Source: a virus (taxonomy: Duplodnaviria; Caudoviricetes). Taken from it: DNA of 40,735 bases. Positions 582 to 40,735 of the stretch are shown in pieces. Each line of letters opens with the position of its first letter. Position 1 is the first letter of the stretch. Made by a program: the position numbers and the translations under genes. Location: positions 1-40,735 of the IMG/VR virus record IMGVR_UViG_3300010362_000047. One strand, given 5' to 3'. The notes beneath the pieces are model-generated. The model saw nothing but the letters and a program-made list of their open reading frames with translations, did no database searches and was not told the origin of the DNA.

Positions 582-596
582 CGTTGATTTCCTAGG

Positions 597-990
597 AAAC
601 CTTTTTTCCTATCGGGCGTCCCCCCAACGTTCGCGCGAAGGGCGTTGTGGCGAAAATGTGGCGTATGGCTCTTTCCCAAACGGAATGAGCCATACCGCCA
701 TCTGTGAGCCGGGGGACCCGGGGGGATCCGGGAGGGACCCCGGGGGGGACGGGAATTCAGGGGGAATGGGAATTCAGGGGGCTTGGGGGAGTGAGAGTTT
801 AAGCTTAAGGCGTGAGAGTGGGGGAGGAGGGGGGTTATAGTTATATATATATATTTGAATATATAAATGCCCCCCCCCCCCGTCACTGGACGTACATACC
901 ATTACCAAAAGTAACGATACCTACGCCACAATTCCGCCACAACCGCCTTTTAACGGACGTTGGGGGGACGCCCGATAGGAAAAAAGGTTT
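597..990. repeat. Long inverted repeat: perfect 34 bp (597-630 / 957-990), extending imperfectly to ~70 bp (597-668 / 920-990)
   Basis: AAACCTTTTTTCCTATCGGGCGTCCCCCCAACGT is the exact reverse complement of 957-990. Confidence 0.95.
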
Positions 991-1074
991 TACAGGAAAA
1001 CGGGCCCGGGCCGAAATCGGCCCTGCGACAATCCGCCGCACCCCCATCCACCAAAAAGCCACACTCCCGCCACA
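597..1074. other. Putative replication origin (inverted repeats, G-tracts, AT-rich core 835-868, C12 tract, iteron-like boxes)
   Basis: Largest non-coding region; the most AT-rich stretch I saw in a GC-rich genome; symmetric repeats. Confidence 0.55.
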
Positions 1075-1121
1075 TTTGCGTGCCATACTGCGCTCTCGGG
1101 CCACCGAACAAGGAGTCGAAA

Positions 1122-7329: not shown

Positions 7330-7872
7330 ATGCCTAACGGAAACGGAAGCGGAAACAACGAAGAGACCCTCACCATTCAAGAGGTACAATTCAAGGTCCG
7401 ACCCTGGCCGAAATACAAGGCCGGCGATATTCTTAAGGACAACGAAGCCGGGGCACTCAACCAAACCTTCCTTGAAAACCTTCGCAACAACTTCTCAAAG
7501 ACTGTGAAGGAGGGCAAGGAGGCTGAGGTCGGCATCGAAATACTCCAACAGCAGTTCGATGACTACGTCTCCGAGTACGAGTTCGGCGAGCGGCGATCCG
7601 GAGGCTTCCGTGGCGATCCTGTCATGACGCTGGCGATGAATGTCGCTCGCGAACTCATCAGGAACACCATCAAGGCCAAAGGTCTCAACACCGATGACTT
7701 CCCGGCGCAGCGTATCACCCAGGCTGCAAAGGCACTTCTTGATGCCCAGGGAGAAAACGGCAAGATCGTGACCACCGCTCGTGAACGAGTAGCCGCCGAA
7801 CAAGAAGCTGCCAGAGCGGCGATGACCGAAGTTGAGGACATCCTCAATGCGTCGCCAGAGGCGGCCGAATGA
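7330..7872 (+). CDS. Hypothetical helical phage protein (own promoter and terminator)
   Basis: AGGAG RBS; 180 aa; YEFGERR...DPV motif. Confidence 0.8.
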   Translation: MPNGNGSGNNEETLTIQEVQFKVRPWPKYKAGDILKDNEAGALNQTFLENLRNNFSKTVKEGKEAEVGIEILQQQFDDYVSEYEFGERRSGGFRGDPVMTLAMNVARELIRNTIKAKGLNTDDFPAQRITQAAKALLDAQGENGKIVTTARERVAAEQEAARAAMTEVEDILNASPEAAE

Positions 7873-8986: not shown

Positions 8987-9201
8987 TGTCTACGTTAGAA
9001 CTTTGGTACCAGGCCCTTCACTCTGAGTTCGGGATCGAAATTCAGGCCTCGAACCCGGAGGACGCCCGGCTCAAACTTTACGCCGAGCGCAGAAAGGTCC
9101 AGGACTCGGACCTCGATGGCATCTCTATATGCCGTTCGCCCTTCGATCCTGAACGGCTATGGCTTGTGAAGAGGAAACCCGCCAATGGCGAGAAAACCTG
9201 A
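8986..9201 (+). CDS. Hypothetical protein
   Basis: TGATG coupling. Confidence 0.65.
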   Translation: MSTLELWYQALHSEFGIEIQASNPEDARLKLYAERRKVQDSDLDGISICRSPFDPERLWLVKRKPANGEKT

Positions 9202-9385
9202 AGATCACCCCATAGTGAAACACACCCTCAATCTCTATCAGGGAGATTACGAGACACTTCAGGAATGGTACGGCAGACGTATTGGCGCGGCGAAGATAGT
9301 CCGTGACCTCGTCCGCGCCCACATCATGAAAGTTCGAGGAGAGGCTGAGCAGCGTCATGAAAGACAAAATCGGGCTACAGAATGA
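9185..9385 (+). CDS. Ribbon-helix-helix-like DNA-binding protein
   Basis: KHTLNL strand followed by two helices (...AAKIVRDLVRAHI). Confidence 0.55.
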   Translation: MARKPEDHPIVKHTLNLYQGDYETLQEWYGRRIGAAKIVRDLVRAHIMKVRGEAEQRHERQNRATE

Positions 9386-9736: not shown

Positions 9737-9831
9737 TCGCCGCAATGTCTCAGTGGGAATCGGCCTTCTGGCTGGGCATAGTGTTTGGTTTTGCCGGCCT
9801 CTGCCTCCTCCTCTTCTATAGGAGCAAGTGA
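9733..9831 (+). CDS. 32-aa membrane peptide (MIAAMSQWESAFWLGIVFGFAGLCLLLFYRSK)
   Basis: Hand-translated; ATGA and TGATG coupling on both sides. Confidence 0.55.
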   Translation: MIAAMSQWESAFWLGIVFGFAGLCLLLFYRSK

Positions 9832-10754
9832 TGGCGCAGTCTCCGTTTGTCGAAGGAACTGATGTTCAATGGGCTTGGGATTCCACTTCGTTGGGTTGGT
9901 TCAAGGAGTGCCCCTACAAATATTACCTCCACATGATTGAGGGCTGGCGTTACCGCGGCGAAAGCGTTCACCTAGACTTTGGCATCTTCTACCACCAATC
10001 TCTTGAGGCTTACGACCGAGCCAAAGCCAAAGGCCTCCCTCACGAGCAATGCCTTCATATCGCGGTTCGGATAGCTATGGAGGCAACGTGGATAGACGGT
10101 AAACCGTGGCGCCTCTCAAAGACCCTCGACCTCTCCGACCGAAACTCAGTTAAATGCCGCGAAAACCTCATCCGCTCAGTCGTTTGGTACCTCGAAAAGT
10201 TCCAACACGACACCGCTGAACTCATAATCAAGAACGGTATGCCGGCCCTCGAACAACACTTCCTCGTGGACATCGGAGAGCGAGATGGAATTCCCTATGC
10301 CCTATGCGGATATCTTGACAAGGGTGTTACTTTTGGTGGTATTGCTTTCACAATGGATAGAAAAACTACCGCAACAACTCTTGGTGATAATTATTATGGC
10401 CGCTTTGATCCTGATAATCAGATGTCTTTATACACCGTCGTAGCTCGGATAATCCGCAAGGAGCCTATTCAGGGCGTTATTGTCGATGCCTGTCAAGTAG
10501 CAGTTGGGTTCTCTCGCTTCGGCCGCAGCATAGTCCAAAAAACCAGCGAACAACTCGAGGAGTGGATGACCGACCTCGATTATTGGCTCGCCCTCGCTCG
10601 ATACTACGCCCACCATAAATATTGGCCGCGGAACGACAAGTCATGTTTCCTCTGCTCTTTTAATAAGATATGCCGCAAATCACCCTCTGTCCGACGCAAA
10701 TTCCTCGAGTCCGACTACGAGCACCGCCCTTGGAACCCATTGGAGTTACGCTAA
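9831..10754 (+). CDS. PD-(D/E)XK (Cas4/RecB-like) exonuclease
   Basis: ECPYKY, FG..YH, LEQ, GYLD...DRKTT, QMSLY, C-x2-C-x5-C C-terminal cluster. Confidence 0.85.
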   Translation: MAQSPFVEGTDVQWAWDSTSLGWFKECPYKYYLHMIEGWRYRGESVHLDFGIFYHQSLEAYDRAKAKGLPHEQCLHIAVRIAMEATWIDGKPWRLSKTLDLSDRNSVKCRENLIRSVVWYLEKFQHDTAELIIKNGMPALEQHFLVDIGERDGIPYALCGYLDKGVTFGGIAFTMDRKTTATTLGDNYYGRFDPDNQMSLYTVVARIIRKEPIQGVIVDACQVAVGFSRFGRSIVQKTSEQLEEWMTDLDYWLALARYYAHHKYWPRNDKSCFLCSFNKICRKSPSVRRKFLESDYEHRPWNPLELR

Positions 10755-10975
10755 TGGATTACGAACCCTACGTCGACCCGAAGTATCGCAAAGTCTTGAA
10801 AGCCCTCTCTCGATTAGTAGACGTAGCTATCAAGGCCGAGGGTGGACTCATCATAATCCTCACGGACGAAGGCAACATAAATTTCACGGCTACCCTCGAA
10901 CGCAATGAAGTCATCTCTACACTCGAACAGATTATCGAGGAACTCAAGGGAGAGTTACCACATGGGCACTCTTGA
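10754..10975 (+). CDS. Hypothetical protein
   Basis: TAATG coupling; GGAG RBS. Confidence 0.6.
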   Translation: MDYEPYVDPKYRKVLKALSRLVDVAIKAEGGLIIILTDEGNINFTATLERNEVISTLEQIIEELKGELPHGHS

Positions 10976-11792
10976 CACTCATCAATCGGGCGACTTCACC
11001 AAACTTCTCTTCATTGGTGACTCTAAGTCCGGCAAAACCGGGGCGCTCGCCAGCCTTGTCCTTGCAGGCTACAAACTTCGTATCCTCGATTACGATAACG
11101 GTCTGGACATTCTCGCCCAGATCATAGCCCGAGATAAACCTGAACTCCTTAAAAACGTGGACTTCAGGACACTCCGGGACAAACTTCGTGCAACGCCAAC
11201 AGGGAGCGTAGTTGATGGCACACCTACTGCCTTCATCGAAGGCCTGCGTCTTCTCGACAACTGGAAGTACGATGGAACTGACTTGGGTAAACCAGCGGAA
11301 TGGGGAGAGGATTGCATCCTTGTCTTGGACTCTCTTACGTTCATGTCGGACGCGGCATTCAGATTCCGGGAGCCTTTGGTACCCAAATCAAAAGACGGAA
11401 AGTATGACGTCCGAGCCGTCTATAAAGATGCACAAGATGGGATTGAAGACGTACTGGCTCTACTTACTGGTGAGACTTTTCGCACGAATGTCATAGTCAT
11501 CTCCCACGTCCGCTACGTTGACAATCCAGATGGCACCAAAAAAGGATATCCTACCGCTATCGGCTCAGCACTTTCGCCGCAAATTCCTCGTTACTTCAAT
11601 TCGGTGGCACTCTGCCAAACCCAAGCCGGTCGACGCACTATCCAAACGGTAGCAACTGCAATGATCGACTTGGCCAATCCTGCGACCTTCAAGATGCTCC
11701 CAACACTGCCGATTGAGTCGGGGCTCGCCACATACTTTGCAACCCTACGCGGTAGGACCGGGCCGCGTAACGTAGTCTCTATCCGGTCATAA
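10962..11792 (+). CDS. AAA_24/Sak4-like ATPase (putative ssDNA annealing/recombination)
   Basis: GDSKSGKT Walker A, LVLDSLT Walker B, VIVISH; sits between a nuclease and an SSB-like gene. Confidence 0.8.
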   Translation: MGTLDTHQSGDFTKLLFIGDSKSGKTGALASLVLAGYKLRILDYDNGLDILAQIIARDKPELLKNVDFRTLRDKLRATPTGSVVDGTPTAFIEGLRLLDNWKYDGTDLGKPAEWGEDCILVLDSLTFMSDAAFRFREPLVPKSKDGKYDVRAVYKDAQDGIEDVLALLTGETFRTNVIVISHVRYVDNPDGTKKGYPTAIGSALSPQIPRYFNSVALCQTQAGRRTIQTVATAMIDLANPATFKMLPTLPIESGLATYFATLRGRTGPRNVVSIRS

Positions 11793-11802
11793 GGAGTCGA
11801 AG

Positions 11803-12063
11803 ATGGAATACAAGATAACTATTCATAAGGAGATAACGGTCAACGTCGAAAAAGACTCATCAATATACGAGTACGTTGTCGATACCCTCAAAGATAACGG
11901 AGTGGAGGGAAAACCCTCCAAAGAGGATATGCTCCTCGTACTTCAGTCGCTCGCCAGCGAAGACTTCGATACCTTCACTGATGGTGAAGAGATCAACGCG
12001 GAAATGGACGTAACTATCGATATCATCAGCACTACGGGCTTGCCCTCTATCAAACCGGAGTAA
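11803..12063 (+). CDS. Acidic hypothetical protein
   Basis: AGGAG RBS; D/E-rich. Confidence 0.65.
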   Translation: MEYKITIHKEITVNVEKDSSIYEYVVDTLKDNGVEGKPSKEDMLLVLQSLASEDFDTFTDGEEINAEMDVTIDIISTTGLPSIKPE

Positions 12064-12067
12064 CACC

Positions 12068-12496
12068 ATGGCCTCCTTCGAAGAAATCATGAACAAACCC
12101 GCATCTGAAATACAACCACCTCCCGCTTTTCCTGTCGGTACATACCACTGCATAATCGATGGACCTCCCGAATTCGTCAAGTCCTCCCAAAAAGGGACGG
12201 ACGGAGTTCGGTTCAGGTATCGGATCATGTCTCCGCTAGAGGACGTCGATCAGGCCGCCTACATGGAGGGTCAAGTAGCCGGCAAAACTATTCAGGACGA
12301 TGTTTGGGTCACAGATGGTTCGGCATGGCGCCTAAAGGACCTCCTCGTGGAGAACCTCGGCATCTCAGAGAACCTCACCATGAAACAACAGTTAATGGAG
12401 GCACCCGGCAAGAGCGTCCTTGTCAAACTGAAACACCAGATTTCTGATGACGGGAAACGAGTCTTCCACCGTGTGGAATCGACTGCGCGCGCCTGA
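12068..12496 (+). CDS. DUF669-like OB-fold ssDNA-binding protein
   Basis: P.GTYHCII..., SSQKGT, GKTIQD..W, GKSVLVKLKH; context next to Sak4-like ATPase. Confidence 0.65.
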   Translation: MASFEEIMNKPASEIQPPPAFPVGTYHCIIDGPPEFVKSSQKGTDGVRFRYRIMSPLEDVDQAAYMEGQVAGKTIQDDVWVTDGSAWRLKDLLVENLGISENLTMKQQLMEAPGKSVLVKLKHQISDDGKRVFHRVESTARA

Positions 12497-12979: not shown

Positions 12980-14324
12980 CTCTATCCAGGTGAACCGAAA
13001 TGAACGCCAACGAAAAGACCTCACAAACATCGATGAACTCGCGGACTCCATCCGCAGGTTGGGCCTCATCCATCCAATCGTTATCACACGAGACAATGTC
13101 TTGGTGGCAGGTGAGCGTAGGCTGGCTGCGATCCGCCACCTTCGCGATCCTTTCGTTAACTGTCAATACGTGGATGAGGTTGAGCCGGACCATCTCAAAG
13201 CTATCGAACTTGAGGAAAACATAAAACGTAGAGACATAACGTGGCAGGACCAAGTCAACGCACTTCGGGCCTACCATAATCTCCGGGCTTCTAAAGAGGA
13301 GGTGTGGTCCCAAGAGAAAACCGCTGAGGCAATAGGACTCAGCAATGCCCACGTCACTCGTATGTTGCAAGTAGCCGACGAACTTGCCCTTGGCAATACT
13401 CGCGTGGCCGACGCTCCAAAGCTGTCCACAGCCCATGGCATAGTCAAACGAAAACTCGAGAGGCAGGATGCACAGACCCTCACAAAGCTTAAGGAATCGA
13501 TCATCGGTCCTCGCCTCGGCGAGGCTCCAGCGGAAACAATCCTCATCGAGGACTTCAACGTTTGGTCCACCAAGCATGTCTCGCCGCGATTCAACTTCAT
13601 TCACTGTGATTTCCCCTATGGCATTGACGTAAACGACTTCAACCAAGGCGCGGCGCCCTCCTTTGGGAGCTACACGGACTCTCCTGAGACGTGGAAGATT
13701 CTCATGGACTCCCTCAAACACACGACCATCAACCTCACTACTCCGCAAGCTCACCTCATGTTTTGGTTCGCTATGCGGAAAGGCGACAAACGCCTCTATG
13801 AGGCCACAGCAATCCGTCTCGAAGCTATGGGTTGGGACATCAATCCACTACCACTAATTTGGGTGAAAAGTGATGGATCAGGAATCATCCCAGACCCCGA
13901 ACGGGGACCAAGACAAATCTACGAGACATGTCTCTTTGGATCTAAAGGGGACCGTAAAATCGTTAGCGCAGTTAATAATGCGTACTCAGCACCCATTGAC
14001 CACAGGTTTCATATGTCTACGAAACCCGAACCAGTTCTGCGCCACTTCTTCAGGATGTTCGTTGACGAGAATACAGTTATGCTTGATCCCACCTGCGGTT
14101 CTGGAAGTGCGCTGCGAGCGGCTGATAGCCTCCATGCAAAGTTTGTACTTGGCCTCGAGATAAACCCAGAGTTTGCGGAACAGGCCCGCGAAGTATTGAA
14201 AACCGCACGAGCCTTACGGAGAGCCGATCATGAGATACATAAATCAGGAGGTCCCGTTCCGGATGTTCGGGAGCCGCCTAATAATCACACGGAAGCAAGT
14301 AGTGGAGCAACCCTGGCTCCTTGA
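12945..14324 (+). CDS. ParB/Srx N-terminal domain + HTH fused to an amino (N6A/N4C) DNA methyltransferase
   Basis: LADSIRRLGLIHPIVI...AGERRLAA...ELEENIKR (ParB); motif IV variant DFPY; H..TKP; motif I LDPTCGSGS (beta-class order). Confidence 0.88.
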   Translation: MTSGHFHRLPTDSIQVNRNERQRKDLTNIDELADSIRRLGLIHPIVITRDNVLVAGERRLAAIRHLRDPFVNCQYVDEVEPDHLKAIELEENIKRRDITWQDQVNALRAYHNLRASKEEVWSQEKTAEAIGLSNAHVTRMLQVADELALGNTRVADAPKLSTAHGIVKRKLERQDAQTLTKLKESIIGPRLGEAPAETILIEDFNVWSTKHVSPRFNFIHCDFPYGIDVNDFNQGAAPSFGSYTDSPETWKILMDSLKHTTINLTTPQAHLMFWFAMRKGDKRLYEATAIRLEAMGWDINPLPLIWVKSDGSGIIPDPERGPRQIYETCLFGSKGDRKIVSAVNNAYSAPIDHRFHMSTKPEPVLRHFFRMFVDENTVMLDPTCGSGSALRAADSLHAKFVLGLEINPEFAEQAREVLKTARALRRADHEIHKSGGPVPDVREPPNNHTEASSGATLAP

Positions 14325-14448
14325 ATTCGTCGATCACTTCAGGAGTTGCTTCACCTACCATCACAACCTTCAGTTCTGGGAGTATCATCCGACAGATGAC
14401 CAAGATAGCATTAGTCGGAGAAGCATGGGGAGAAGCGGAGGAGCGTGA
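14230..14448 (+). CDS. Possible small overlapping protein
   Basis: GGAG RBS; spans the MTase/UDG gap; no motif. Confidence 0.3.
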   Translation: MRYINQEVPFRMFGSRLIITRKQVVEQPWLLEFVDHFRSCFTYHHNLQFWEYHPTDDQDSISRRSMGRSGGA

Positions 14449-15418
14449 ACGCGCTCCATTCGTTGGCGCTGCCGGCTATCAACTTAACTCCCTTCTTAAG
14501 GACGCGGGCATTCCACGCTACGAATGCTTTCTCACAAACGTCTTCAATCTGCGGCCGAAGCCGACCAACAAAATCGATAACCTCTGTGCCAAAAAGGCGG
14601 ACGTCAGGCACAACCTTCCTGCACTTCGTCCTGGACACTACATCCGGGACGAGTTCCTTCCAGAACTCGATCGACTCTACCGCGAAATTGGAGCACTCCG
14701 TCCAAACCTCGTCGTAGCTCTCGGTGGCACAGCGTCCTGGGCACTCCTTCATGACTCGCGAATCACGAAGCTACGCGGAGCGGTCGCCACTTCCACTGTC
14801 CTTCCAGGACAGAAGGTCCTTCCAACCTTCCATCCCAGCTACATTCTCCAAGGTAGTTACGACCAGAGGCCGGTTGTGGTCCTCGATCTCCTTAAGGCCA
14901 AGCGCGAGGCCGAGTTCCCGGAGGTTCGGCGACCGCACCGCACAATCTACATCGAACCCCTTCTCTCTGAGATCGAATGGTTCATCAATACTTTCATCAT
15001 GCCATCGAAGTGTATTTCAGTCGATATCGAGACTGTAGAACGCATCATCACCTGCATCGGATTTTCGCCCTCGAAAGAAATAGCTATGGTGATCCCGTTC
15101 AGGGATCTCCGCAAGCCATCAAAGACATACTGGGGTTCGCTCGATGCTGAGGTCAAGGCGTGGGCACTTGTCCGAAAGATCCTCGACCTCCCCATTCCAA
15201 AGGTCTTCCAAAACGGCCTCTACGACATGCATTTCCTTTGGAAGATCTACGGTATCCGACCGCGAGCCGTCGAGCACGACACCATGCTTCTCCACCATGC
15301 GCTCCAACCGGAATCGCAAAAGAGTCTTGATTTCCTCGGCTCCGTTTACACGGACGAGGCCGCATGGAAACTTGTCATGCGCTCCAAAAACAAGAGCACA
15401 ATCAAGAGAGAGGAATAA
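14396..15418 (+). CDS. Uracil-DNA glycosylase-like (family 4) domain fused to the N-terminal part of a 3'-5' exonuclease; first half of a split PolA
   Basis: VGEAWG..E....PFVGAAG, TNV, VVALGGTA, PTFHPSY; then ExoI SVDIET, ExoII FQNGLYD, DTMLLHH. Confidence 0.88.
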   Translation: MTKIALVGEAWGEAEERERAPFVGAAGYQLNSLLKDAGIPRYECFLTNVFNLRPKPTNKIDNLCAKKADVRHNLPALRPGHYIRDEFLPELDRLYREIGALRPNLVVALGGTASWALLHDSRITKLRGAVATSTVLPGQKVLPTFHPSYILQGSYDQRPVVVLDLLKAKREAEFPEVRRPHRTIYIEPLLSEIEWFINTFIMPSKCISVDIETVERIITCIGFSPSKEIAMVIPFRDLRKPSKTYWGSLDAEVKAWALVRKILDLPIPKVFQNGLYDMHFLWKIYGIRPRAVEHDTMLLHHALQPESQKSLDFLGSVYTDEAAWKLVMRSKNKSTIKREE

Positions 15419-15514
15419 ATGAAACCCGATCTAATCTGGCTCGTGTTCGTCCTCGGCCAAATCTTTGGGGCACTCTCGGTCCTTTTCGGCTTCTGGTTGG
15501 CGCAACTCCGATGA
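15419..15514 (+). CDS. 31-aa membrane peptide (MKPDLIWLVFVLGQIFGALSVLFGFWLAQLR)
   Basis: ATG directly after the UDG-exo TAA; GAGG RBS; its TGA overlaps the Pol ATG (ATGA). Confidence 0.55.
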   Translation: MKPDLIWLVFVLGQIFGALSVLFGFWLAQLR

Positions 15515-17031
15515 AAGTCATTCACACCGATGTCCTCAAACTCGGCACCAAAATGTCGAGTGACGAGGAACTCTGGATCTACAATGGCCTCGATTGCTGC
15601 GTCACCCGAGAGATCCTTGATGTGTTGCTGCCACAGCTCGACAATATGACTTCCTCAACCTATACCCTATCACGAAACCTCCAGGGGCCGGTTCTGGAGA
15701 TGAACATGAGAGGAGTTCGCATCGATGAAGAGGAGCGAAAACGAGCGATCAGAGATTATAACAACGACGTGGACAGACTTGAAAGGCAATTGTACAGTAT
15801 TGTCAACGACGGAGTTGGATACGGCGAATTCAGAACTATTGGAAAGTCTCGTGCCTGGCGCAGTCGAGACCAAGTGGCTGCTCTCCTATATGATGTACTC
15901 CGACTACCTGAAGTCCGTAAGCGAAACGAAAAAGGTGATATGGTCCGGACTGTCAACAGAGACGCTCTCGAAAAGCTACAGCTTTACTTCATTGCTCAGC
16001 CCATCATTTCACATATACTCTCTCTTAGAGATCTTGGAAAGAAGATTTCAGTCCTTGAAACTGAAATTGATCCAGATGGACGAATTAGAACCAGTTACAA
16101 CATCGCAGGAACAACTACGGGCCGTTTCTCTAGTGCGTACAGCGACTTCGGAACTGGAGGAAATCAGCAAAATATTGAGGAGCGCCTTAGACGTGTATAC
16201 ATTCCAGACGAAGGAATGAAGCTCGCAAACATCGACCTTGAACAAGCCGATTCACGAAATATAGGAGCCCTATGCCATGAATACCTCGGAGACTCGCGAT
16301 ACCTTGAGGCTTGCGAGTCAGGTGATCTCCACACTTCAGTTTCTCGCCTCGCGATCCGAGAGTGGCCCTGGACCGGAGACATTAAATTGGACCGTGTCCT
16401 TGCCGAACGGATCTACTATCGGCACCACAGCTTACGACATATGTGTAAAGTTCTCGGACACGGAACTAACTATCTCGGCACGCCTTACGAGATGAGTCGA
16501 CATACTAAGATATCACCTGACAAAATAAAAGAATTTCAATCCGTCTACTTTAAAGCCTTCCCAGCCATACAAGGACTCCATGACTGGGTCGCAAACGAGC
16601 TTATCGAGCGAGGCCACCTCGTGACTCTCTTTGGCCGCAAGCGATGGTTCTTTGGTCGGCGGGACGACAGAGACACTCTAAAACAGGCAGTGGCCCACCT
16701 GGGCCAATCTATGACAGCAGATGAGATGAACAACGGCCTTCTACAGGCATGGCGACTTAACATCTGCCAAATATTATTACAAGTGCACGACTCAATCCTA
16801 ATACAGTATCCATGGGAGAAAGAAGATGAAATCATACCAAAACTTCTTGAGGCCATGCGTGTATCACTTACTCTGCGAGGAGGTCGCAAATTCATCGTGC
16901 CACTGGACGTAAAAGTTGGTTGGAATTGGGCCAAGATTGATCCGAAAAAAGAAACTTTCGAGGACGGAAACCCACTTGGACTAAGTAAGTGGCCCGATGA
17001 CCGGCGAACGCAGATGCGAAAGTTGGATTAA
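15511..17031 (+). CDS. polA: Family A DNA polymerase (ExoIII motif + polymerase domain)
   Basis: YNGLD (ExoIII), TTTGRFSS, motif A DLEQADSR, motif B RHMCKVLGHGTNY, motif C QVHDSI. Confidence 0.93.
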   Translation: MKVIHTDVLKLGTKMSSDEELWIYNGLDCCVTREILDVLLPQLDNMTSSTYTLSRNLQGPVLEMNMRGVRIDEEERKRAIRDYNNDVDRLERQLYSIVNDGVGYGEFRTIGKSRAWRSRDQVAALLYDVLRLPEVRKRNEKGDMVRTVNRDALEKLQLYFIAQPIISHILSLRDLGKKISVLETEIDPDGRIRTSYNIAGTTTGRFSSAYSDFGTGGNQQNIEERLRRVYIPDEGMKLANIDLEQADSRNIGALCHEYLGDSRYLEACESGDLHTSVSRLAIREWPWTGDIKLDRVLAERIYYRHHSLRHMCKVLGHGTNYLGTPYEMSRHTKISPDKIKEFQSVYFKAFPAIQGLHDWVANELIERGHLVTLFGRKRWFFGRRDDRDTLKQAVAHLGQSMTADEMNNGLLQAWRLNICQILLQVHDSILIQYPWEKEDEIIPKLLEAMRVSLTLRGGRKFIVPLDVKVGWNWAKIDPKKETFEDGNPLGLSKWPDDRRTQMRKLD

Positions 17032-18226
17032 TTCATACATCGACTACACTGAGATAGTCCCGAGCCCACGACTCCTACGAAAGTGGGCGGCAATAGCTCT
17101 TGTAGCCGCTGCGATGGAACGCAAAATCTGGGTGAGGACCATGGGTTCTGACCTGTATCCGGGACTTTATACAGTGCTAGTCGGACCTCCAGGCATTGGC
17201 AAGGGTGAGGCTATGAAATCCGGCAGTACTCTTATCCGCTCCGTACCAGATATCCATATTGGAGCCTCAGATCTTACCGGGGCCTCCCTCATCGATAATC
17301 TCAATGAGGCGGTTCGCCGGATAGTCATAATGGGCGATCCACCCTACATGGAATTCAACTCCCTTACCATCATCTCCCGCGAACTCGGAGTCCTCCTTCC
17401 GGCCTGGGACCCAATCATCCTCAACTCCCTCACCGACATCTATGATGGACAAGTAATCGATCACAAGCGGCGCGGGCGCGACCTCAGAATCAAAATCCTC
17501 AGTCCCCAGATCAACATCCTCGCTGCCACAACGCCCTCATACCTCAATCAAGTAATGCCGCCGGGAGCATGGGATCAGGGCTTCATCTCACGAACACTCC
17601 TCATTTACTCAGGCGAACGCATAATGCGTGACCCCTTCGAGGAGCAGCGAGTACTCAACCTTGGAGCACTCTACTCCGATCTCCTCAGCGACATCAAAAA
17701 CATTTCCACTCAATTTGGCCGCATGAGTTTCACACTCGACGCAGCCGAAGCCATCAAAGCATGGATACAGGGAGGATGCCAACCAGAGCCACAGAGCGCA
17801 CGACTCCAACACTACAATTCGCGGAGATTCGCCCACCTCCTCAAGCTGTGCATGATTTCGAGCATGTCTCGTTCAAACAACAAAGTAATCAATGTCGACG
17901 TCTATTCCGAGGCCCTCAACTGGCTTATCGAGGCCGAGGTTTACATGCCTGACATTTTCAAGTCAATGGTTGCCGGTGGCGACTCCACTGCAATGGAAGA
18001 CACTTGGCAGTTCGTTTGGGCTGCCTACGCAAAAGAGAAGGGTCCGGTGTCAGAACATCGAATCATCAACTTTCTAAGGGAGCGCATCCCAGCACACTCG
18101 GTAATGCGTGTGCTGGAGGTGATGGTCAGATCCAAAATGTTCGAGGTGGTACTCAGTGAAAAAGGTATGGCAGGTTACAAACCTTCGTCGCGCGGCCAAC
18201 GTATGGAGTCTAACATTCTTAGTTAG
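16997..18226 (+). CDS. DUF3987/MCM-like AAA+ ATPase, putative replicative helicase with C-terminal winged helix
   Basis: LVGPPGIGKG Walker A, NILAATTP, GFISR (Arg finger), R...LLKL...I..D....A..W; atypical Walker B (IISRE). Confidence 0.7.
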   Translation: MTGERRCESWINSYIDYTEIVPSPRLLRKWAAIALVAAAMERKIWVRTMGSDLYPGLYTVLVGPPGIGKGEAMKSGSTLIRSVPDIHIGASDLTGASLIDNLNEAVRRIVIMGDPPYMEFNSLTIISRELGVLLPAWDPIILNSLTDIYDGQVIDHKRRGRDLRIKILSPQINILAATTPSYLNQVMPPGAWDQGFISRTLLIYSGERIMRDPFEEQRVLNLGALYSDLLSDIKNISTQFGRMSFTLDAAEAIKAWIQGGCQPEPQSARLQHYNSRRFAHLLKLCMISSMSRSNNKVINVDVYSEALNWLIEAEVYMPDIFKSMVAGGDSTAMEDTWQFVWAAYAKEKGPVSEHRIINFLRERIPAHSVMRVLEVMVRSKMFEVVLSEKGMAGYKPSSRGQRMESNILS

Positions 18227-37115: not shown

Positions 37116-37346
37116 TCAGGCGCCCATTGGCTTCTTTGTCAATGCCTTTACTGCCCACATTGCAGAGTCCTCGGCATGGGTTTGGGCCAGTGCCCACAAT
37201 CGTTTAACCTCTGGATCATTGACGCTCTTAGCGCCCTCGGCGTAGATGTTAATGAGGTGGGCAGCGACACTCTTTACCTCGTTCACTCTCTCGTCCCCGC
37301 TAGGATTAAAGTCGATCCCAACCCGATACTCTCCAAGACCCGTCAT
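37116..37346 (-). CDS. Acb2/Tad1-like hairpin protein (candidate cyclic-nucleotide sponge)
   Basis: GE.RV...FNPSG...V..IK..AA.LI.....R..ALAQT..E..AMWAVKA.T; GAGGAGG RBS. Confidence 0.65.
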   Translation of the reverse strand: MTGLGEYRVGIDFNPSGDERVNEVKSVAAHLINIYAEGAKSVNDPEVKRLWALAQTHAEDSAMWAVKALTKKPMGA

Positions 37347-37356
37347 GATGCCCTCC

Positions 37357-38784
37357 TCAATACGATTTCCAGTCGCCTGCATTGGGGGGCCGATAAGTGG
37401 AATACCCGATGTCCACCCTGGCCTCCGTCGTACTCAGTGGCCGCAGATACGGTCGGCTCATTGCCGCGTATCGCCAGTCATCCGGAGCGTGATCCTCACC
37501 CCCGGTATCGACGTCCTCAGGCCGGTCCCGATCGTGCTGCATTGCCGGGACCGTCCGAACACTGTCCGTACACGTGGAGAAACAAAAGATCATGGGCTCC
37601 GGCTCGGCCATCATCCTCGCCCGGAGTTGGTCCCAGCCTCCCATGGCGCCCTTGGCACTAACCCGAGAGTTGTCCGCTCTCTTGAATGGTACGAGTTTGT
37701 CCCTTGCGAGCACTCTATTCATGCGCTCAGCGATCGATGGACCCCCGGCCTCCTGAAACGCTGAGGGATCGAGCACCCCATACCGCAACCGCGGAAGCAC
37801 TGTCCGTTCGAGTCGTACGATGCCCTCCGCAACCCGCTCCGCATCCATCTTCAGCCCTTTGTCAGGGCCGGACGCTCCATACCACTCCGCGTACCTCACG
37901 AGGGCGCCACGAGGGATGCGGCGGCGGGACTCCTTAAGAATGTGGAGGTCGTCGGCTATCGCCCACCATCCGACGCTGAATGGTTTGGCCGATCCCCAGT
38001 CCATCGATCGGAACCGAGCCCAACTGGCTGGAATGGCGAAAGGTTCCACTACGTGTCGCTCGTAGCGCCAGCAATCGAAGAATGCACCCTCAATGATAGT
38101 CCAATCTCCGTCGAGCCAAGCGCGCACCATAGCATCACTTGCAAGCCCTCGAAGACGGCCGGCGTATCCTGGGTCGGAGTCGAGGAGGATCTTATTGTCA
38201 CGCAGCCGCGCGGGAATGAAGATTCGATCCATTCCAGTAACTGGGTCGCGAATTGGCTTATATCCCTGGTAGCAAGGGTCGACAAAGTAGGCTTTAACCC
38301 AATGGTGACCAACTCCACCTGGGTTGGCGGCGGCTCGTATCCGGAGGGTCAGGACTCCGTGGGCTGATCGTAGGCGTCCGCGGAGGTACTTGTAGGCGTA
38401 ATCCCCAGCCCACTGCGTGAGTTCGTCCCACCCGATCCAAGTGTAGGCATGGCCTTGGTATCGAGTGGCATCGGCCTCCCGCTCAAGATATCGCATTTTG
38501 AGGCTGGCACCATTGTTCCAGGTCCATGTTTTTGGCTGCTCATGCCACACCGCACCACTTTGTGGATAGATTTCGTGGGACCTCCGAATCAACTCCTCAA
38601 GCTCGTTGTACGTTCGCCTGAAGAGGATGCCGGTCCAACGCCGACCATAGGTTGGCACGTCCTGGAGAAAATCCCCCAAGAGATAATCGGATTTCCCACC
38701 TCCGGCGGCGCCACCGTAGAAAAGTTCAGGACACCAGTCTGCGGTAATTGCTGCCGTCTGTGGTCCCGGCTGGGGAGACCACAT
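37357..38784 (-). CDS. terL: Terminase large subunit
   Basis: YGGAAGGGKS, WDELTQW, ANPGGVGH.WVK, DWGSAKPF, EDHAPDDWRY; start 38784 or 38832. Confidence 0.93.
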   Translation of the reverse strand: MWSPQPGPQTAAITADWCPELFYGGAAGGGKSDYLLGDFLQDVPTYGRRWTGILFRRTYNELEELIRRSHEIYPQSGAVWHEQPKTWTWNNGASLKMRYLEREADATRYQGHAYTWIGWDELTQWAGDYAYKYLRGRLRSAHGVLTLRIRAAANPGGVGHHWVKAYFVDPCYQGYKPIRDPVTGMDRIFIPARLRDNKILLDSDPGYAGRLRGLASDAMVRAWLDGDWTIIEGAFFDCWRYERHVVEPFAIPASWARFRSMDWGSAKPFSVGWWAIADDLHILKESRRRIPRGALVRYAEWYGASGPDKGLKMDAERVAEGIVRLERTVLPRLRYGVLDPSAFQEAGGPSIAERMNRVLARDKLVPFKRADNSRVSAKGAMGGWDQLRARMMAEPEPMIFCFSTCTDSVRTVPAMQHDRDRPEDVDTGGEDHAPDDWRYAAMSRPYLRPLSTTEARVDIGYSTYRPPNAGDWKSY

Positions 38785-39937
38785 CGTCGGAGGAATCGAG
38801 TTCGTCTTTACGCCTCTTAACCCATTCGTCATGAGTCTCTCGTGGCGGCCGATCGATAGCCTCCGCGGTCAGGCCAATCTCCATCTTCGACCCTGGGCCA
38901 TGGCCCGTACGGTCTGCGAAGGTTCTGGCCATCTCTAGGAGGAACGAAAGGGAGAACTGATTTGGGTCCTCTTGAAGTCGATCATGGATAGTTTCGAGTG
39001 CATCCATAGACAGATTTGCCATCCGCTCGGTCATATCCGCTACGATCGACTTGGTATCCTCTCGGTAATCGGCAACGAGAGCACTGAAAGTGGGGTCATC
39101 GACTAACTGTGCCACCCTCGCGACGGAATAGCCTGCCACGTGGGCCGCGTCACCCTGTTTCATGCCGGTGGCAAGGCACCGCGCGAGGGCATGGTGGCTG
39201 GAATGGATTCGCTTAAGCGTCGGAGCATGGGTTCCCCTCGGCAGCGTCAGCGCTGCTATGTCCGAGGCATTGAGGTCCCGAATCCACTCTGGCGGGGACG
39301 AAGTCCCGATGCGGCCCTTCCGGATCTTGGGTGCCTTGGGCAGGAGATCCAGCTCGCTCAGGAGGGCCTCTGGCGCGAGGATTCGAGGGTCCCGCGCGAA
39401 GCGAGCGGCCTCGGGCAAAGCCCCGGGGCGAAGCTCGGCGTCCGGCCCAACTCCAGCTCGTTCGATAGCGGAGGCCTCGAGTGCGGCCGAAACAATATCA
39501 CGCTTAACGCGGGCTCCTGGAGCAAAGGCTGCTGCCCACTCGTCCGCCGTAAGCACCCCTGTGACAGGCGGTGCTGATGGCGTCAGGGTGGCCCGCAGGA
39601 CCTGCCGCTCGCTCTCGTTGATCCTAGGCCGACCGCGGCCAGGAATGTGCTGGCGGAGCCACGCCTCAAGCGCCGGCGCGGGAGGGCCGGGGGTTGGAGG
39701 ACGTCCGGCGGGCGGGGCGCTAGGCTCCACCTCGGCAGGAGGACGTCCGGCGGGCGGGGCCTCGGGTTCGGGGCTGGGTTCCGCTGATTCGAAGAGTGCT
39801 CGGAGGATCTCCTCTGGTGTGGGACTGGTGGCGAGATGGGTGGCGTCCGGCTCGGGGGCGTCCGGCAGCCAAGTATTGACCTCGGCGTCCGCCTGAGCTA
39901 CGAGGTCGGCGATGTCCATGTTCTCGGCCTTGTCCAT
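38726..39937 (-). CDS. Terminase small subunit candidate (HTH + helical region, long Pro-rich N-terminus)
   Basis: Directly upstream of and overlapping terL; HHALARCLATGMKQGDAAHVAGYSVARVAQL HTH; ADRTGHGP. Confidence 0.6.
   Translation of the reverse strand: MDKAENMDIADLVAQADAEVNTWLPDAPEPDATHLATSPTPEEILRALFESAEPSPEPEAPPAGRPPAEVEPSAPPAGRPPTPGPPAPALEAWLRQHIPGRGRPRINESERQVLRATLTPSAPPVTGVLTADEWAAAFAPGARVKRDIVSAALEASAIERAGVGPDAELRPGALPEAARFARDPRILAPEALLSELDLLPKAPKIRKGRIGTSSPPEWIRDLNASDIAALTLPRGTHAPTLKRIHSSHHALARCLATGMKQGDAAHVAGYSVARVAQLVDDPTFSALVADYREDTKSIVADMTERMANLSMDALETIHDRLQEDPNQFSLSFLLEMARTFADRTGHGPGSKMEIGLTAEAIDRPPRETHDEWVKRRKDELDSSDDVVSPAGTTDGSNYRRLVS
39696..39760. repeat. 23-bp direct repeat x2 (APPAGRPP)
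   Basis: GGAGGACGTCCGGCGGGCGGGGC at 39696 and 39738. Confidence 0.85.
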
Positions 39938-40283
39938 GTTCCCGCCTTCGGCGGCCGCCTTTGGCGCCGCCTTCGGCGCCGAGCGTGCGCGCAACGCGCA
40001 CAAATGTCAAGCGATTGTCGTCGAGGCGACATGAGATGTTGGTAATGGGAGGGGGAGGCCTGTAGGTATGTTTGGGGGAGAAAATCTGGCGGGGGTGAGG
40101 CGCCCAAAAATTTTATTGCTTTTTTAGGCCCCCCGGCGAACTTTTATTGCGTAGATCCCCCGAGTCCCGCAACATTATTGTGTAGTGTGCATGTGCAAAA
40201 GTGTCACGTTCGTGCCACACATCACACAAGCCAAATATTGCGCAGTTTGGGCAAACAACGAACTATTGTTGCGCACATTGAAG

Positions 40284-40374: not shown

Positions 40375-40735
40375 ATGATCACCGTAACTCTGAAATCAGG
40401 TGCTGAACGCGAATTCCCGTCTTTTGCCGAGAGCAACGAACTCGACGATGCCACGATCGAGTACATCTGGGAGTACGGCGTGAAGCAGTGCATCAACGAC
40501 GCGACTGCGCCAGTCGTGAAGGCCAAACACGAGCCGTCGAAGAAGAACGACTTCCGCACATTCGATGACGAGGTCAACTACCGCGCTGACGTCCGGATTG
40601 CGAACCTGTGGTCCGGGAATGTGCCTACGCGCCGCGCGCGAGTGTCGGTGACCGAGTTGAAGAGTCGTCAGGTGGCCAAGGAACTCTCGACCAAGTTGGG
40701 ATCTCTCGACGAGGCCATGATGAAGAAGATCTTCG
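40375..40735 (+). CDS. Early hypothetical protein (125 aa, MITVTLKSG...KKIFEAAAE); wraps across the junction and ends at nt 17
   Basis: Hand-translated; AGGAG RBS at 40361; final G + AGGCCGCCGCCGAGTGA gives E-A-A-A-E-stop. Confidence 0.8.
   Translation, partial: MITVTLKSGAEREFPSFAESNELDDATIEYIWEYGVKQCINDATAPVVKAKHEPSKKNDFRTFDDEVNYRADVRIANLWSGNVPTRRARVSVTELKSRQVAKELSTKLGSLDEAMMKKIF

Follow-up and report, generated by a model that had tools for sequence, protein, structure and literature searches.

An arm-flanked, AT-rich element in Kuura-related podoviruses without a detected primase: a possible helicase-loading origin at the end of the terminal repeat

RESULTS

Genome and relatives

The window analyzed here, a 40,735-nt stretch that makes up the whole of the record, is the genome of a podovirus related to Caulobacter phage Kuura. 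Contigs of two sequencing runs show that the genome is circular and that the window lacks 27 nt at its 40735/1 junction; these extra bases keep the first early gene (40375..40735, + strand) in frame as it crosses the junction to position 17, inside what we take to be the terminal repeat. Directly 3' of this gene, at 31-47, lies a hairpin, GGGGCGCAAATGCCCC, that is found in many close relatives, either with a T tail or lacking one. A scan of the 58 open reading frames (ORFs) recovered a P22-like portal, capsid, terminase, UvrD-like helicase, exonuclease, Sak4, SSB, ParB-methylase, UDG-exonuclease, family A polymerase, and a DUF3987 protein. The PD-(D/E)XK exonuclease, the Sak4-like annealase, and SSB are encoded together at 9828..12496 (+). 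A putative small terminase with a conserved HTH is encoded on the - strand at 38726..40003; its proline-rich N-terminal half differs between runs, and the protein is kept across clades with non-matching large terminase, portal, and capsid. Other features of the window include a gene between terminase and portal (37116-37382, -) for an Acb2/Tad1 hairpin-domain protein that is likely an anti-defence sponge, a perfect, C-rich 26-bp tandem duplication at 2833-2884 that is single copy in one run, four CCCCAA repeats at 1653-1676 that are G4-prone on the - strand, and a conserved ORF at 7330-7872 for which no named look-alike was found.

The cultured relatives are, in order of nearness, Kuura and then Jamesmcgillvirus (PaP2, 119X, and PaMx41), Tiera, and Mel-JY34. 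All share with the window their gene order, the pairing of polymerase and DUF3987 protein, and an AT-rich intergenic site downstream of the first early genes, but the identity of their helicases to that of the window is just 24-32%. We gathered further relatives through terminase, portal, and helicase searches plus whole records, and compared 33 elements: that of the window, 20 loci with terminase identity of at least 64%, 11 further records, and Kuura. Two near-identical loci were left out of this set, and the close kin that remain mean that the counts below overstate independence.

Anatomy of the element

An earlier note made from the sequence of the window had described positions 597..1074 as a symmetric, origin-like element, and the structures that it listed are present, some of them on a larger scale. 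The perfect 34-bp inverted repeat (597-630 and 957-990) is single copy, and the window has no other perfect inverted repeat of at least 16 bp with a 40-1500-nt loop; the surrounding imperfect repeat, put at ~70 bp, extends to arms of 87 bp at 82% (588..674 and 913..999; z of 33 versus shuffled sequence). What had been read as a hairpin at ~660-700 is indeed a palindrome, at 663..695, although we interpret it as a 33-bp box of the form RTATGGY-N19-RCCATAY that is likely a protein binding site. To its right are a lineage-specific G-rich tract with short tandem duplications (711..834, +; 69 G versus 15 C), which contains the words GGGAATTCAGGGG at 751 and 768 and GGGGGAGGAGGGGGG at 820, and then an AT core at 835..868 in which 32 of 34 positions are A or T. 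No other 30-nt window of the genome is as AT-rich as that in this core, which is the predicted unwinding element, and the C12 tract that follows it (870..881, +) is able to pair with the G run to the left of the core. Positions 1000-1074 of the stretch first described fall outside the symmetry and form the downstream promoter region: ahead of the next early gene, GCCACA repeats together with an extended -10-like word (1058..1089, +; similar in 9/33 elements) would make up a promoter facing away from the element.

DNA searches with the element as query matched no relatives; its sequence is lineage-specific. Rfam returned a single, chance-level match, and a sequencing-run search found no RNA run among those listed with the sequence.

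Replication proteins

The absence of a primase, proposed in the earlier note together with a profile search as a check, was borne out: no primase family in Pfam was found among the 58 ORFs of the window, and Prim-Pol (PF09250) and Toprim_2 (PF13155) matched in none of 16 genomes, with control profiles matching in 3 and 14 of 14. Primase families beyond these two were covered by the Pfam scan of the window alone. Inspection of the conserved unknown ORFs by eye found no primase-like catalytic motifs. The earlier account of an origin-like site in a phage without a primase is upheld, and it applies across the family as well.

The family A DNA polymerase anticipated from the sequence is present, its polymerase domain lying at 15364..17031 (+) immediately after a gene that joins a UDG-like domain to the 3'-5' exonuclease part of the polymerase (14321..15418, +). 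The polymerase is split inside its proofreading domain (14321-17031), with the last exonuclease motif on the polymerase gene; this arrangement recurs in most relatives, and PaMx41 and Tiera have a single gene. The helicase-like ATPases number three (UvrD-like, Sak4-like, and DUF3987) rather than two. PHROG calls the DUF3987 gene (16997..18226, +) a "DNA primase," an assignment that we rejected because its predicted structure (pLDDT of 87) consists of an AAA+ domain and a C-terminal winged helix, is without a primase domain, and has MCM helicases as its best fold matches. This model indicates that the "DNA primase" label on the DUF3987 genes of these phages is wrong. The helicase sequence returned spurious repeat-protein matches and nothing else against solved structures. 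According to the available part of one account, DUF3987 is a predicted helicase and usually occurs as a fusion with an AEP primase (PMC5862659); among the homologs listed here it stands alone, at ~410 residues.

Conservation across the family

Comparison of the element among the 33 members, a check that had also been proposed, places it between the small terminase and the early genes, with inverted arms, an AT core, and GTATGG boxes as its family features. The layout often runs from a terminator through the left arm, a GTATGG box, a pyrimidine tract, a (TA)n or T tract, a purine tract, a second box, and the right arm to a promoter. In 15/16 complete genomes AT content over 30 nt peaks at the core, and in 15/16 the core lies at a distance of 0.5-2.3 kb from the match to the small terminase; because the AT run of the expected region was taken as the core, position is the independent part of this result. 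A T tract is on the + strand in 23/33 cores versus a single A tract. The purine, AT, and pyrimidine flanks of the window core are inverted relative to most relatives, and those of the relative L165 are also atypical. Words repeated at least 2 times on both sides of the core occur in 9/33 elements, CCACAA repeats are found on the promoter side in only 9/33, and GTATGG boxes appear in both orientations, at genes as well as in the element.

The arms (45-137 nt) score at least 46 in 21/32 testable elements versus 2/960 random positions and are weak in the other 11, Kuura included. Among the cultured phages they are clear in Mel-JY34, weaker in Tiera and Kuura, and not above chance in PaMx41. Their sequence varies by lineage while the complementarity of each pair is kept: in 19/21 cases the best match of an arm was its own partner over any other element, and five divergent pairs of elements had 12-15 concerted columns versus 0-1 changed by side, with one near-identical pair showing the opposite (0 concerted versus 9 by side).

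The element co-occurs with the helicase-polymerase module and the small terminase in a clade with non-matching large terminase, portal, and capsid, and it was absent in 3/3 large-terminase kin without the replication module. Every carrier of the element also has the small terminase, and the two are inseparable in any genome.

Several relatives have individual features at this site. The assemblies of G025 and G011 break inside the core, and G025 carries differing core versions at its two record ends, which suggests that the core is hypervariable. In G017 and G022 the element lies 5' of the first early gene, which would make their terminal repeat short and gene free.

The GTATGG box and its candidate binder

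The half-site RTATGGY occurs 78 times in 29/33 elements; GTATGG boxes are absent from Kuura. Genome-wide, 23/83 strict sites fall within 500 nt of the core. Against an expectation of 0.9 per bin, a further 7 strict sites are concentrated close to the small terminase, in the bin at 1.0-1.5 kb left of the core. Inverted pairs have a fixed spacer of 19 nt, with 33 matches in 26 records versus 0-7 at other spacers between 10 and 29 nt. Such pairs are found in the element and 5' of ORF 7330, the methylase, the UDG-exonuclease, the capsid, and the small terminase genes, and boxes are likewise present ahead of the polymerase. We also saw direct pairs at 25 nt and therefore favor recognition of the motif by a DNA-binding protein over an RNA hairpin.

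The 33-bp palindromic box is likely bound by a ribbon-helix-helix (RHH) protein, and a candidate is encoded at 9185..9385 (+). This conserved ORF of 66 residues, which is without a metal domain, has a predicted strand-helix-helix fold; its top 14 VIA rows were antitoxin or repressor chains (best Z of 5.9, rmsd of 2.7, 58 aligned), many of which are RHH proteins by title or otherwise, and its atlas neighbors were RHH_1 and YlcI. Foldseek and Pfam gave no match for it. The central threonine of the RHH strand is lost in 3/4 genomes without the canonical box and in 0/~17 with it by a hand tally, and a test of threonine-box covariation across 16 genomes gave a p of 0.004, a post hoc value uncorrected for kinship. 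We also considered residues of the small terminase, a rival binder with its HTH, and residues of the winged helix, and neither set tracked box loss. We regard binding of the GTATGG boxes by the product of ORF 9185-9385 as a lead.

The available text on Escherichia coli NikR offers a comparison: this RHH protein binds GTATGA-N16-TCATAC (PMC7055735), an operator that resembles the phage box in having two GTATG-type half-sites far apart, read in NikR by RHH dimers. The phage box differs in its half-site (RTATGGY) and its 19-nt spacer, and the phage candidate in having no metal domain.

Terminal repeat and virion end

The terminal repeat of Kuura is given as 606 bp in the accessible part of its description (PMC9959647). 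The Kuura virion end falls between the left arm and the core, ~60 nt left of the core center; the repeat end is known in Kuura only, and by analogy the element likely marks the inner end of a direct terminal repeat in its relatives. The outer end in the window would correspond to a conserved block 5' of the small terminase gene (40064..40134), again by analogy with Kuura. In the close clade this block contains a box half-site, GCGGGG..GCGCC, a T tract, and CCCC, and it is a candidate pac site or outer repeat end. In four runs, contigs covering ~40.1 kb to 0.4 kb had a raised mean depth. A terminal repeat would give such a pattern, with the qualifications that contig depth is no copy number, that strain mixtures could explain the rise, and that one run may be the source sample. 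PaMx41 presumably also has a terminally redundant genome.

Strand skew

The leading or displaced strand in replication is generally G-rich. At four-fold sites the + strand was C-rich in 17/17 genomes, an effect of strand seen in all 8 amino acids; in the window, the + genes have 408 G and 923 C at these sites and the - genes 1117 G and 914 C. Under the rule above, most DNA is therefore copied leftwards, with forks running against early transcription and opposite to the direction expected from an RNA primer on the + strand. The skew forms a plateau over the early genes, is about zero just left of the element (with a negative trend in 14/17 genomes), and jumps at the element.

DISCUSSION

A helicase-loading origin

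The reading that we favor, tentatively and at somewhat less than even confidence, is that the element is a helicase-loading origin situated where the terminal repeat has its inner end; the support for it is comparative throughout. The predicted MCM-like DUF3987 helicase would load at the element and open the AT core, while a ribbon-helix-helix protein on the GTATGG boxes may bend or gate the site. Loaded on the T-rich + strand and running 3' to 5', the helicase would travel leftwards, first through the terminal repeat and then through the late genes, and in doing so it would also restore the repeat that packaging removes. The exonuclease and Sak4 may join genomes through the terminal repeat. 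The primer would come from a host enzyme (primase or RNA polymerase), from a folded-back DNA end formed by the arms or core, or from a CCPol-like activity of the polymerase, and not from a G4 in the early transcript. The T tracts on the + strand would send a 3'-to-5' helicase leftwards, in agreement with the direction of the skew in 17/17 genomes.

Close parallels are found in the SaPI and SCCmec systems, whose AAA+ winged-helix helicases, according to the available portions of two reports, self-load at AT-centered origins and move 3' to 5' (PMC9371898, PMC7581432). As in SaPI Rep/PriRep and SCCmec Cch2-CCPol-MP, the phage has an AAA+ ring helicase with a C-terminal winged helix, here a predicted fold, and a central AT-rich region that may likewise lie between oppositely oriented sites, and as in SCCmec it has a family A polymerase and no canonical primase that we could detect. 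The phage differs in that its element has long, lineage-specific arms instead of 6-12 iterons and lies at the terminal repeat, that Pri is missing, and that no gene intervenes between polymerase and helicase as a possible MP. Further, the origins of the SaPI/SCCmec type lie directly downstream of the helicase gene, whereas element and helicase gene are ~16 kb apart in the window and likewise in its relatives. The GTATGG boxes are not helicase-specific iterons, because they are also found 5' of ordinary genes and near the other repeat end.

Other points that weigh against this reading are the weak arms of 11/32 elements, the reversed core flanks of the window, the inseparability of the element from the small terminase, and a repeat end known from Kuura alone. 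The shape of the skew is also less favorable. A single leftward origin predicts strong skew to the left of the element, and the fading of the skew there counts against it; initiation spread over the late region fits the profile better, and we therefore keep in serious consideration the alternative described next.

Packaging and self-priming

That alternative, which we consider unlikely but the foremost rival, is that the element serves only in packaging and repeat processing: the small terminase would bind boxes at both repeat ends, the large terminase would cut between the left arm and the core, and bulk replication would begin elsewhere, for example at late promoters. Besides the skew gradient, the Kuura end inside the element, the clustering of the strict motif at two places (near the core and near the small terminase), and the conservation of the small terminase HTH in all carriers are in line with it. 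Cutting, however, needs neither the most meltable DNA of the genome nor arms of 45-137 nt; the loss of the canonical box tracks the change in the RHH strand and not changes in the terminase helix; and boxes also stand 5' of polymerase, methylase, and capsid genes. T7 provides a model for a site of this kind, as its concatemer junction with phiOL/phiOR combines signals of the origin type with packaging signals next to a direct terminal repeat in a phage with a family A polymerase (PMC8373140; PMC3276506), and pausing of T7 RNA polymerase at this junction starts packaging, as far as the available text describes it (PMC3276506). The window phage differs from T7 in encoding no phage RNA polymerase and no primase-helicase, and its helicase is MCM-like and not DnaB-like.

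We consider it improbable, though worth stating, that the element primes its own replication. Single-stranded arms would form a panhandle, and the primer for the family A polymerase would then be supplied either by the 3' end of the folded-back DNA or by host RNA polymerase acting at a single-strand promoter. T7 duplicates its terminal repeat by hairpin priming, and the T7 hairpin end, Frpo, and ssoA are precedents for such a mechanism. In its most ambitious form, to which we attach the same low probability, a large phage family without its own primase would use a repeat-end panhandle, conserved in shape and not in sequence, to prime a family A polymerase working with an MCM-like helicase, so that one site would both start replication and rebuild the terminal repeat. 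The failure to find a primase and the preservation of arm complementarity without preservation of arm sequence are what such a mechanism would lead one to expect, yet occasional arm-to-arm conversion would give the same concerted pattern. The - strand has an excess of G-T mismatches (102 versus 61 in 20 elements; 0.63 observed and 0.53 expected, p of 0.02), a bias that genome-wide mutation also yields, and its fold is the more stable one in 23/31 elements, although the + strand folds slightly better in the window. Conserved promoter words are absent from the arms.

Transcription-based and other readings

A role in transcriptional control, in which the terminator, the RHH operators, and the AT tract insulate or tune the next early promoter, is very unlikely. 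It would account for the presence of the same box 5' of several genes, for the terminators upstream of 16/33 elements, and for the promoter-like words downstream, but other box sites are without arms and core, and this reading would not explain why the element is symmetric about its core or why the Kuura end falls inside it.

The earlier note had proposed that read-through from the early operon yields a G4/R-loop primer next to the AT-rich element; lying on the + strand, such a primer would start rightward synthesis. We now find this model highly improbable, with G-richness, read-through, and fork polarity all against it. R-loop priming is already known, in that origins of phages T4 and T7 use transcripts according to the available parts of the sources (PMC4412123; PMC8373140), and the window itself is the most favorable case, with the top + strand G4 score of the 33 elements (2.2) and only a weak terminator upstream. 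Across the family, G exceeds C on the early-mRNA (+) strand in just 7/33 elements, and G4Hunter scores of at least 1.5 were found on the + strand in 4/33 versus 10/33 on the other strand. An intrinsic terminator lies just upstream of 16/33 elements on the + strand and of 0 on the other, the elements of G017 and G022 precede the first early gene, and the skew has the opposite polarity in 17/17 genomes. Most family members share with T4 oriF/oriG, ColE1 RNA II, and mitochondrial CSB II an upstream promoter and a downstream AT-rich unwinding element, but neither a G-rich nontemplate strand nor upstream promoter read-through is conserved among them. The G4/R-loop reading is not supported, and the G-rich strand is a peculiarity of the lineage of the window.

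An invertible segment, a miniature transposon, or an assembly artefact is the least probable explanation: the 34-bp repeat collapses in short-word contigs and leaves the loop orientation unresolved there, and the core flanks of the window and L165 are atypical, but core polarity is fixed (23 T tracts versus 1 A tract), a recombinase is absent among the 58 ORFs, and the element is single copy, at a fixed position, and carried by independent assemblies and cultured phages. Contigs over the region revealed no joints, within the limit that short-word contigs cannot reveal inversion. We also considered that the loop of the window is inverted, and relatives matched it no better reversed (13) than forward (12).

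Implications

The components of this system have precedents, and it is their combination that appears new in the literature: no primase, a stand-alone MCM-like helicase, arms conserved in shape at the repeat end, and an RHH box. In the literature open to our search, mostly outside subscription journals, neither the element nor the box is described, nor is an origin for the Kuura-related family.

The site bears on two open questions: the start of DNA synthesis in tailed phages that have a family A polymerase and no primase, and the restoration of terminal repeats in phages other than the T7 group. Both can be tested with a single defined site and a single helicase, in phages already in culture (Kuura, Mel-JY34, Tiera, and PaMx41). 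A phage-wide palindromic box, for which there is a candidate regulator, emerges from the comparison as well.
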